Below, piece after piece: positions 18,738-21,926 of a DNA stretch of 38,964 nucleotides (positions within the stretch are counted from its first letter, which is position 1; the number at the start of each line of letters is the position of its first letter). This DNA is from Escherichia phage HK542. The position numbers and the translations under genes were made by a program. The DNA is taken from sequence record NC_019769.1. One strand, written 5' to 3'. Below the pieces are notes generated by a model that made no database searches, had not been told where the DNA came from, and worked only from the letters and a program-made list of their open reading frames with translations.

Positions 18738-18757
18738 CTCATGATTTTCAATGCAAA

Positions 18758-18782
18758 CCTCGCCTCGGCGGGGTTTTTTATT
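18758..18782 (+). terminator. Intrinsic terminator after lipoprotein gene
   Basis: cctcgc-ctcg-gcgggg followed by ttttttatt. Confidence 0.6.
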
Positions 18783-18795
18783 GCCTGGAGAAAAT

Positions 18796-20148
18796 ATGCT
18801 TTATAACACTGGAACCATCGCCATTAACGGAAACAGCGCCACCGGCACGGGCACGAACTGGACGGCACCCGCCAGCCAGGTTCGCGCTGGCCAGACGATT
18901 ATCGTGATGTCTAACCCGGTGCAGCTGTTTCAGATTTCATCCGTGAACAGCGCCACGTCAATGACGGTTACTCCAGCTGCTTCCCCGGCGCTGAGCGGCC
19001 AGAAGTATGGAATTCTTGTGTCGGACATTATCTCGGTCGACGGACTGGCACAGGCCATGTCACAGCTCATCAACGAGTACGATGAGAATATTGGTGCATG
19101 GGAGACGTTCGCTACTACCTCAGCGAACCAGATTATCACTGTAACCATCAACGGTACCTCCGTGAATATTCCGGGCATTGGTGGCCTGGCTCGAAAAGGG
19201 GCAAACAGCGATATCACGGAGCTGAAAGGGCTCACTACTGCGCTTTCTATTGCGCAGGGCGGCACCGGTGCAACGAACGCTGCAGACGTTCGCACAAACC
19301 TCGGTTTGGGAACAGCGGCTACATCCAATACCTTGACCAATGTTGTAGACCAAAGCGCTGGGGCGCTTGTAAGAAACAGTGATTTCGGTATCGGTGGTAA
19401 TGGTGGCGCAGGGGAAGGTGTGCCTATTGGTAGCTATGGCAATAATGCAAACTACATGGCATTAAATGGCTGGTACGGTGGTGCGGGTGTTAACGCCGTA
19501 AACCATTTTGACGGCTTCTCCCCATTATTGACAATGTGCCGGTTCGCTGGTGGTTACATTGGACAAATTCAGATTACTAAATCCGGTAAAATGGGTATTC
19601 GTGGAGGTACTGGAGCAACAACTTCAAATCAGGGCACATGGACACCGTGGTATGAGGTTTACAGCACTGGTAACACGACAAAATCCAGCGACGGTACACT
19701 GAAGGCTGCGTCTCCGGTTGCACGTATCGTTAAAAGCCAGGGGGAATGCCAGCGCGCCGATATAACTGAGGATGGTTTCTCCTGGTGCGGCTGTGGTACG
19801 GCGAACGCCGAGGCGGAGGGAATAACCATTTCCCGCCTCGAGGTGGGTGTTTACTTGCTGGCCGGTTCGGCAGGACTTGCGTCAGAGGGATGGCAACTGC
19901 TGCCGCCAATGGACCCTGGCGGAATGGGAGAGCTTGGCGTTGTCGAAGCAGAACAGACCGAAAGCGGCGAGCTGACAATCCGTCTTTTCAAGCGAAAATA
20001 TATCCTGAGCGATGAAGGTGAGGTCATCAAAACCAAAGGTGAACCGATTGACGTCCCGGCGAACAGCTGGATCGATGTTCGTCTTGATATGCCAGAAAAC
20101 AGTGTCTGGAATCAGCGCCAGAAAGAGGCGATTGAACCTGCTTCATAA
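18796..20148 (+). CDS. Tail fibre protein
   Basis: 450 aa from ATG 18796 with GGAG RBS; contains the tail-fibre repeat motif SIAQGGTGATNAADVRTNLGLG; the track start at 18751 would include the terminator hairpin. Confidence 0.75.
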   Translation: MLYNTGTIAINGNSATGTGTNWTAPASQVRAGQTIIVMSNPVQLFQISSVNSATSMTVTPAASPALSGQKYGILVSDIISVDGLAQAMSQLINEYDENIGAWETFATTSANQIITVTINGTSVNIPGIGGLARKGANSDITELKGLTTALSIAQGGTGATNAADVRTNLGLGTAATSNTLTNVVDQSAGALVRNSDFGIGGNGGAGEGVPIGSYGNNANYMALNGWYGGAGVNAVNHFDGFSPLLTMCRFAGGYIGQIQITKSGKMGIRGGTGATTSNQGTWTPWYEVYSTGNTTKSSDGTLKAASPVARIVKSQGECQRADITEDGFSWCGCGTANAEAEGITISRLEVGVYLLAGSAGLASEGWQLLPPMDPGGMGELGVVEAEQTESGELTIRLFKRKYILSDEGEVIKTKGEPIDVPANSWIDVRLDMPENSVWNQRQKEAIEPAS

Positions 20149-20481
20149 AGAAAACCGCCGCCTGTCGTATGCAAGCACGAGCCACGGCTGGCTGTCTAAC
20201 TTTCGATAGTGCGAGTATTGAATGATTTCCAGCCGCTACCGATTTTACTATGTTTTCAGTAGAACACTTAGACAAAACTGAGACACACAAATCTTTGCAC
20301 TGGATTGCAAGGCTTTGTGCTCTTCTGTGAATGTGTGGCTATATGTTTGAAGATCGTTGTGCCGTATTTGTGACATATATATGGCAACATCATGCATCAA
20401 CTTTCTGTTTGTGCCATCAACTATAGCTTAGTGAATGCGGTTAATGCTTGCTAAAACAGATAGTTATGATTGGTGCTACAG

Positions 20482-20527
20482 ATTCGTAATGCGAAGGTCG
20501 TAGGTTCGACTCCTATTATCGGCACCA
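20482..20527 (+). other. attP core, identical to the 3' portion of a tRNA-Thr(CGU) gene
   Basis: attcgtaatgcgaaggtcgtaggttcgactcctattatcggcacca has anticodon loop, T-arm and acceptor 3' strand plus CCA, but no matching 5' half; adjacent to int. Confidence 0.75.
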
Positions 20528-20541
20528 TTTAAATCAATGAG

Positions 20542-21702
20542 TTACCTCGCATTTAAGTAAACCACGTTCTCCTCTTGTGCCGTATTTGTGCCATTGCGAC
20601 TTATAATCGCATCGATTTTGCTCGCGTGCTCGGTGAGATGCCCGGCTGAAAGGTGGGCGTATCTTTGAACCATTTCGAGAGTTTCCCATCCTCCCATCTC
20701 TTTAAGTGCAAGAAGAGAGACACCGGACTGAACCAGCCAGCTTGCCCAAGTATGCCTCAGGTCATGGAAGCGGAAGTTGCTAATGCCTGCCCGCTTTAAC
20801 GCTCCCTTCCATGCCTTGTTGCTGTCGGTTCTCATCTTCCTTACCGCTGCTGTTTTTGTTCCGTCGCTTCGGTAGGCAGGTTTGGTGTGGACAAACACCC
20901 ATCTCTTATGGAGCCCCTGCTGTTTTCTTAATATCTGGCATGCGGTTTCGTTAAGAGGAACTCCGATCGCATTGCCAGCTTTTGTTTCATCAGGGTGCAT
21001 CCATGCCATTTTCTTATCCAGATCGACCTGTGACCACTCAAGGTCTGTAACGTTGGAACGGCGAAGGCCTGTCGTGATTGCAAACATGACCACAGGGAAG
21101 AAATGAGGAGCAATTTCTGCAAACAGGCGCTTAGATTCCTCTTCTGTAAGCCATCTAATGCGTCCATTCTTAACGCGTGGTGTTGATATTTTGGGCGCCC
21201 TGTCAAGCCATCCCCATTCAACAGCCATATTGAGAATAGCGCGAAGTATTGCCAGATGCCGCGTCTTCGTTCCTTTGCTTGCCAGCTTTGGTTTATACTC
21301 CGGCACTGGCTTGCCAAGCCGCAAACACCTGTCCCGGCTCATCTCCCAGTTCAGGCGATGGCGGCGGTTTTCCATCCCGTCTACCGCCTCCATTATTTTT
21401 TCTGTTGTTATGTCAGAGAGAATGGTTTCTCTGAAGTGCAACATCCAGAACGATATAATGCTCTTGTCATCATCAATGGACTTCTTATCCGATTTCTCTC
21501 GCAGCCACCGTATGCAGGCTTCCTTGAATAGCTTTTTCGGTGATTCCCCGAGATTTTTTACTCTCCACGCTTCTGCTTTTAGACGATCGTGAAGTTCTTG
21601 CGCTTGCCTTTTGTCCGATGTTTCAAGAGAGCGTCTAACTCTTGATCCATCTGGCGCGACGAAATCACAGTGCCACGTGCCACCGCGTAGTTTGATTGAC
21701 AT
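20542..21702 (-). CDS. int: Tyrosine integrase, P22-like
   Basis: 386 aa; from memory, closely matches P22 Int including the C-terminal catalytic region RFHDLRHTWASWLVQ...VQRYAHL. Confidence 0.93.
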   Translation of the reverse strand: MSIKLRGGTWHCDFVAPDGSRVRRSLETSDKRQAQELHDRLKAEAWRVKNLGESPKKLFKEACIRWLREKSDKKSIDDDKSIISFWMLHFRETILSDITTEKIMEAVDGMENRRHRLNWEMSRDRCLRLGKPVPEYKPKLASKGTKTRHLAILRAILNMAVEWGWLDRAPKISTPRVKNGRIRWLTEEESKRLFAEIAPHFFPVVMFAITTGLRRSNVTDLEWSQVDLDKKMAWMHPDETKAGNAIGVPLNETACQILRKQQGLHKRWVFVHTKPAYRSDGTKTAAVRKMRTDSNKAWKGALKRAGISNFRFHDLRHTWASWLVQSGVSLLALKEMGGWETLEMVQRYAHLSAGHLTEHASKIDAIISRNGTNTAQEENVVYLNAR

Positions 21703-21926
21703 GCTTTAACCTCCTGCACATCAACCGCATTCACCGCGCTATTGTGTCTTACAGACTTAAGCGCCGCAATGCAGTCTGACTTGCAAATGCGATATGGGCT
21801 TTTAGGTTTATCTGGATTTATCTTTGCGGCCTGAAGTCGTCCACTTCGTATCCACTGCGTGATAGTGCCTTTGTCTACCTTCAGATACGACGCTGCCTCT
21901 TCACGAGTGAAGATTTCTTCTTCCAC
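21579..21926 (-). CDS. xis: Excisionase-like HTH protein
   Basis: GTG start with GGAGA RBS; N-terminal excisionase-type HTH (TREEAASYLKV...TITQWIRSG); 3' end overlaps int start. Confidence 0.6.
   Translation of the reverse strand: MEEEIFTREEAASYLKVDKGTITQWIRSGRLQAAKINPDKPKSPYRICKSDCIAALKSVRHNSAVNAVDVQEVKACQSNYAVARGTVISSRQMDQELDALLKHRTKGKRKNFTIV

Follow-up and report, generated by a model that had tools for sequence, protein, structure and literature searches.

The int-xis-att region of phage HK542

The window analysed here, a stretch of 38,964 nucleotides, is the complete genome of Escherichia phage HK542 (NC_019769.1), a lambdoid siphophage of the HK97-like group. Its first 25 kb are matched by ECP1 (98.6% identity over 91% of the query), and HK446, HK75, HK544 and HK633 match them too. 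Because the HK446 match begins at base 1 in both sequences, the window represents the virion (cos-ended) form of the genome.

The attP region is flanked by a tail-fibre gene (18751-20148, + strand) and the integrase gene int, with the excisionase gene xis lying beyond int (Table 1). The int open reading frame ends 14 bp from the attP core, and int and xis overlap by 124 bp, an arrangement that is also found in P22. Both a tyrosine recombinase gene and an excisionase gene thus adjoin the site, as is characteristic of complex (lambda-type) attPs. Over 380 aa, the HK542 Int is 54% identical to P22 Int (E = 1e-157), with 58% identity in the N-terminal 65 residues, which upholds the description of the integrase as P22-like in an earlier, sequence-only reading of this DNA. 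Homology to P22 Int is also a property of the thrW-targeting P22-family att modules.

Table 1. Genes and sequence elements of the HK542 attP region. Offsets run from the core edges to the start of TGTG (HK542) or of TGGGAC (P22).
Feature	Position	Strand	Description
Outer P22-like segment	20271-20317	+	40/47 match to P22 P arm -122 to -76; local score 64, as against at most 26 in shuffles
Candidate Int arm-type site P1	20357-20367	+	TTGTGCCGTAT; offset -124 (P22 TGGGAC, -125); kept in 20 non-redundant P arms and in L101
Candidate Int arm-type site P2	20368-20378	+	TTGTGACATAT; 11 bp tandem with P1; offset -113 (P22, -114); kept in the same 20 P arms
Candidate Int arm-type site P3	20409-20417	+	TTGTGCCAT; offset -72 (third P22 site, -60); position kept across diverged TGTGCC-type arms
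Conserved P-arm block	20430-20440	+	AGTGAATGCGG; conserved at 85% or more across the 20 non-redundant P arms; P22-type arms have the similar GTGTGAGCGCAG here
Conserved P-arm block	20453-20466	+	AAAACAGaTAGTTA; candidate accessory or host-factor site; conserved among the 20 non-redundant P arms; no strict IHF consensus match
attP common core	20482-20527	+	ATTCGTAATGCGAAGGTCGTAGGTTCGACTCCTATTATCGGCACCA; 46/46 match to the 3' end of E. coli thrW (tRNA-Thr CGU)
IHF-consensus site, candidate H'	20532-20544	+	AATCAATGAGTTA; overlaps int stop codon; P22 match at equal offset (21343)
int	20542-21702	-	Tyrosine integrase, 386 aa, SfX subtype of P22 Int family; PF00589, E = 9e-35
Candidate Int arm-type site P'1	20575-20585	+	TTGTGCCGTAT; inside int 3' end; offset +49 in HK542, P22 and L101; nearly invariant in 32 P' arm variants
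Candidate Int arm-type site P'2	20586-20596	+	TTGTGCCATTG; tandem with P'1; offset +60 in HK542, P22 and L101
xis	21579-21926	-	Excisionase, 115 aa; 42% identical to P22 Xis; HTH_17 match; annotated as excisionase in relatives

The attP core and integration at thrW

The sequence-only reading had proposed that a 46-bp segment of this region corresponds to a tRNA-Thr(CGU) gene from the anticodon loop through the CCA end but lacks the 5' half, and had suggested an alignment with thrW as a check. The alignment confirms the first part of this proposal: the core is the same, base for base, as positions 31-76 of thrW, a gene annotated as 76 nt long, beginning with the last base of the 5' side of the anticodon stem and continuing through the anticodon loop (CGT) and onward through CCA. 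Identity ends abruptly at 20481, where the phage reads GGTGCTACAG and thrW reads AGAGCAGCGC. Over the whole window, ARAGORN found no tRNA gene, and hence no complete cloverleaf such as a functional tRNA gene possesses; the 5' half of thrW is therefore truly missing, as had been claimed.

A 46-bp core was mapped experimentally for SfI, and the same core is found in SfII, SfV, SfX and P22 (PMC3636060). The HK542 core is letter-for-letter equal to the published SfI core, a feature that it shares with the thrW-targeting P22-family modules. Strand exchange takes place somewhere within 20482-20527, and comparison of the 23-bp attP core annotated in the P22 record with the phage sequence points to 20489-20511 as its likely counterpart.

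An allele of the core was observed in which the equivalents of 20501 and 20515 are both substituted, the first from T to G and the second from A to C (T19G + A33C). The two changes form a compensatory pair in the T-stem of the tRNA, always occur together (L025, L027, L041 and L211-L228), and are present in attL, attR and hybrid sites and with both Int families. In one 87-kb contig, the attL core is the variant one and the core of an internal junction is the standard one. As a means of mapping the crossover, the allele was set aside, for the tandem array places that exchange only outside 20501-20515 and is not decisive.

Integration of such modules at thrW is recorded in annotation and has been studied experimentally. 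HK446, mEp213 and mEpX2, which are 95-99% identical to HK542 in this region, carry a misc_feature reading 'attP; similar to thrW tRNA gene and ptwF'. The attP, attL and attR of SfX at thrW were determined by PCR and sequencing (PMC3306764), and the statement in the sequence-only reading that P22 integrates at thrW is borne out by the literature (PMC2629481). Many complete E. coli genomes contain a match that starts exactly at 20482 and runs into int, across features annotated as 'tRNA-Thr' and 'site-specific integrase'. In E. coli 13C1065T, a whole prophage of 42 kb lies between proA-thrW and the yagP/paoD region with both junctions present, and its Int is identical to that of HK542 (384/384). 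The attL and attR cores of this prophage are 42,345 bp apart; the phage flank of attL is identical to 20528-20727 at 197 of 200 positions, and that of attR to 20282-20481 at 194 of 200.

The corresponding empty attB was sought with a 205-nt query in which the core was placed between the bacterial flanks of attL and attR. ATCC 8739 is among the many strains that have this sequence uninterrupted and at 100% identity, and at query coverage of 80% or more, at least 1897 of 5426 E. coli genomes contain it. As in lambda-type systems, the core is identical in attP and attB, and both prophage junctions divide the phage sequence there. The mapping of attL and attR in lysogens, which had been suggested as a check on the placement of attP at thrW, was thus carried out from genome sequences and located both junctions at the core. 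Because of the 13C1065T junctions and the empty attB, lysogen junctions elsewhere, the outcome that had been named as counting against this placement, are not what is seen.

The thrW locus of another strain, E. coli SWYHX138.261ft, holds a decayed prophage remnant with an attL that is 100% identical to HK542. The remnant has a near-identical int-xis pair, its Int being the same RefSeq protein as that of the 13C1065T prophage, and carries gtrABC-like genes along with IS1, IS30, IS3 and IS5 insertions.

It was also observed that the 72 bp following the thrW CCA in E. coli constitute a fossil SfX-type P' arm, as seen in the 13C1065T attR flank (L005:4375-4446) and in the ATCC 8739 attB. An IHF-consensus site (AAATCAAAGAGTTA) and both arm units (CTGTGCCGTATTTGTGCCATTG) are kept in this fossil, which has a 1-bp deletion relative to HK542. 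With a fossil P' arm beside thrW, the empty attB therefore resembles an attL, and the attR of a lysogen resembles a whole attP. That an attL-like target of this kind could affect the efficiency of integration by SfX-type Int, the directionality of excision or the frequent formation of tandem prophage arrays at thrW is a speculation to which we give little credence. As a separate point, the SfX and P22 subtypes, having the same core and layout and a switched arm motif, would make a natural pair.

Repeats and other elements of the P and P' arms

A 16-bp direct repeat had been claimed on both sides of the core in the sequence-only reading, and the 16-mer TTGTGCCGTATTTGTG indeed occurs exactly at 20357-20372 and at 20575-20590. 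When up to three mismatches are allowed, the window contains 3 matches, as against 0.38 expected, and none of 100 shuffles reached 3. The right-hand copy lies within the int 3' end, as had been stated, and belongs to a second pair at 20575-20596 inside the int coding sequence; the partial copy that had been placed near 20407 is TTTGTGCCAT at 20408-20417. Each 16-mer amounts to one and a half units of a tandem pair, the units being about 11 bp long and spaced at 11 bp. The shorter motif TTGTGMCRT has only 6 matches on both strands of the 38,964 bp, of which five, all on the + strand, lie within the 240-bp attP stretch and start at the first bases of the five candidate sites in Table 1. The suggestion that the repeats are candidate Int arm sites keeps the support of layout and conservation, while its count has to be amended from two repeats to five sites, arranged as tandem pairs and a single unit. 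A repeated motif that is unlike the core and present on both arms (three copies on P and two on P') is again characteristic of lambda-type attPs.

Very similar modules are found in SfX, ECP1, HK75, HK446, mEpX2, mEp213 and mEp043, in which the DNA from the P arm through the int 3' end is 95-99.6% identical to that of HK542; the SfX module is 98% identical over 20270-20700. Only the neighbouring cargo differs among them, together with a few point differences outside the repeats. HK542 has its tail-fibre gene upstream, whereas the P22-type Shigella converting phages SfV and SfII have gtr O-antigen genes at that place.

The P22 attP shares with HK542 the 46-bp core, the number of motifs on each arm (three on P and two on P'), four of the five motif offsets, the offset of the IHF-consensus site after the core, the length of the int-xis overlap, and homologous Int and Xis proteins. 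Five of the 11 genomic copies of TGGGAC in P22 are at the offsets given in Table 1, and these repeats are presumably the arm-type sites of P22 Int. The two attPs differ in the third P-arm site, which is 12 bp further from the core in HK542, and in the arm motif, which is TGTG(C/A)C in HK542 and TG(G/A)GAC in P22; the arms of P22 are otherwise not alignable to those of HK542, save for a displaced 47-bp segment. A different arm motif under a shared architecture fits an Int that has diverged this far from P22 Int, in its N-terminal 65 residues as elsewhere. The Int proteins of SfV, SfII, SfI and SfIV are about 89% identical to P22 Int, and SfV (89%) has TG(G/A)GAC at the offsets of P22. Because its own arm motif is not TG(G/A)GAC, HK542 is assigned to the SfX subtype and not to the P22 subtype.

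Conservation of the arms was assessed in a comparison set made up of every IMG/VR site whose core is not preceded by the thrW base. The P arms of this set form two families, TGTGCC-type (family A) and TGGGAC-type. The three motif positions stay fixed in 20 non-redundant TGTGCC-type P arms while the sequence that separates them diverges freely, and the majority fraction averages 0.92 within the motifs as against 0.70 in the rest of the arm. The tandem pair hardly varies among the 32 P' arm variants compared, unlike the spacer; because the P' sites are coding (they encode NGTNTAQ in int), their conservation is confounded with protein constraint. A more distant comparison is offered by IMGVR_UViG_2568526066_000001 (L101), in which two thrW cores, at 1396 and 4573, bound a 3.2-kb element. 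The Int of this element has 64% identity with that of HK542, its P' flank otherwise looks unrelated by eye, and the arm motif is found at all five HK542 offsets (-124, -113, -72, +49 and +60). This element may be a satellite or a remnant integrative element. Three diverged TGTGCC-type P arms (L112, L115 and L156) were seen to have a third tandem unit 11 bp outward, at -135.

All isolated phages examined have P and P' motifs of one type along with the matching Int type, and a search among phage records found no hybrid attP. Hybrid junctions, in which an SfV/SfII-type P arm and the core are followed by an SfX-type P' arm and int, are confined to prophage-derived IMG/VR contigs (L019, L035, L056, L057 and L059, with gtr genes in L035); the reverse combination occurs too. 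The possibility that these loci are functional hybrid attPs was rejected, because no isolated phage has one and because tandem lysogeny, by integration of SfI into the SfX attL, has been shown experimentally (PMC3306764). The hybrid junctions are consistent with tandem prophages at thrW.

Next to the core, the candidate H' site is one of only 2 matches to the IHF consensus WATCAANNNNTTR in the whole window, and its ATCAA...TTA pattern is retained in most P' arm variants; a search of the P arm with the strict IHF consensus gave no match. Further out, the segment at 20271-20317 has as its P22 counterpart the distal tandem pair and the sequence that follows it, here displaced to about 89 bp further from the core. 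Within it are three TTTGCA-like repeats, spaced at 10 bp, and TTAGACA/TGAGACA units in degenerate form. An inverted repeat at 20286-20319 was considered as a terminator or sib-like element for int and dismissed, since its fold is no better than those of shuffled sequences (z = -0.54); a terminator scan at this position gave a weak + strand match only.

Judged by these comparisons, the flanking repeats are almost certainly Int arm-binding sites. It is very unlikely that the TTGTGCC repeats bind Xis or a host factor instead of the N-terminal domain of Int, although the 11-bp separation of the tandem units would suit such a role, recombination directionality factor sites being described as typically direct repeats about one helical turn apart (PMC7498355). 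Against it, the motif is found in the P' arm within int as well as in the P arm, its arrangement of three and two copies matches that of the repeated motif in the P22 attP, and it follows the Int lineage (TGTGCC or TGGGAC) with matched pairing in all isolated phages examined. In lambda and P22, moreover, sites for the directionality factor are known from the P arm only. That the repeats have no function at all, the P' copy being preserved only for the Int C-terminal residues that it encodes and the P copies having arisen by duplication or chance, is hardly credible. The P' pair does encode NGTNTAQ at the Int C-terminus, and translation of the L101 P' arm gives a similar peptide, but the P-arm copies are non-coding and yet are the best-conserved positions, at fixed offsets, in the 20 diverged arms. 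The concentration at this one locus of all but one of the genomic TTGTGMCRT matches, and the equivalent offsets of a different motif in P22, likewise speak against absence of function.

A separate question is how far the P arm extends. Because the outer segment is conserved within an E. coli sublineage, the functional P arm could be longer than the one proposed here, with 20271-20317 adding further Int or Xis sites. The homology of the segment to the P1-P2 region of P22 and the stretch beyond, the conservation of the TTTGCA-like triple repeat in the sublineage, and a module boundary common to mEp213 and SfX at about 20270 would all agree with such an extension. However, many close relatives have decayed TGAGACA units, and diverged TGTGCC-type elements, whose P arms end at about -125 to -135, lack the segment. 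A longer arm is therefore considered unlikely, and the outer segment is probably the relic of a P22-type arm.

Proposed recombination and its place among known systems

The reading preferred here, to which a probability of about 0.9 is attached, is that approximately 20357-20596 is the attP of an HK97-like lambdoid coliphage with a thrW-targeting int-xis-att module of the SfX type, including five inferred Int arm sites. The tyrosine integrase recombines the 46-bp core with the identical 3' end of chromosomal thrW. The resulting attL consists of the thrW 5' half completed by a 3' end from the phage, with the P' arm and int beyond it, and attR consists of the P arm and the 46-bp tRNA fragment. 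Because the phage supplies the thrW 3' end at attL, the tRNA gene stays intact. Recombination at the core and its attL and attR products are shown at the level of genome sequence. By analogy with lambda and P22, Int would be heterobivalent, its catalytic and core-binding domains acting at the core and its N-terminal domain binding the five arm-type sites (consensus TTGTG(C/A)C(G/A)T). Three of these would lie on the P arm, two in tandem and one alone, and the other two in tandem on the P' arm, within the 3' end of int. IHF, bound to its consensus match beside the core, and Xis, on the P arm, would be expected to bend the DNA into an intasome and to set the direction of the reaction.

The lambda attP has the same general plan, with a core common to attP and attB, arm-type sites for Int to either side of it, accessory roles for IHF and Xis, and int and xis adjoining the site. 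Lambda differs in having an intergenic attB, a 15-bp common core, and arm sites P1, P2 and P'1-3. HK542, by contrast, targets a tRNA gene and carries its own copy of the 46 nt at the 3' end of that gene.

The feature described here is already known, as an ordinary lambda-like coliphage attP at thrW that is annotated in near-identical phages. Because such sites have been both annotated and experimentally characterised in those phages, nothing in the attP itself is new. The result places the integration site of the phage at thrW and explains how the tRNA gene survives lysogeny, and is of little wider importance. The comparison nevertheless maps five candidate arm sites for integrase of the SfX type, apparently never footprinted before, and this map could be useful for thrW-targeted integration vectors or for the study of how arm specificity changes while core specificity remains fixed.
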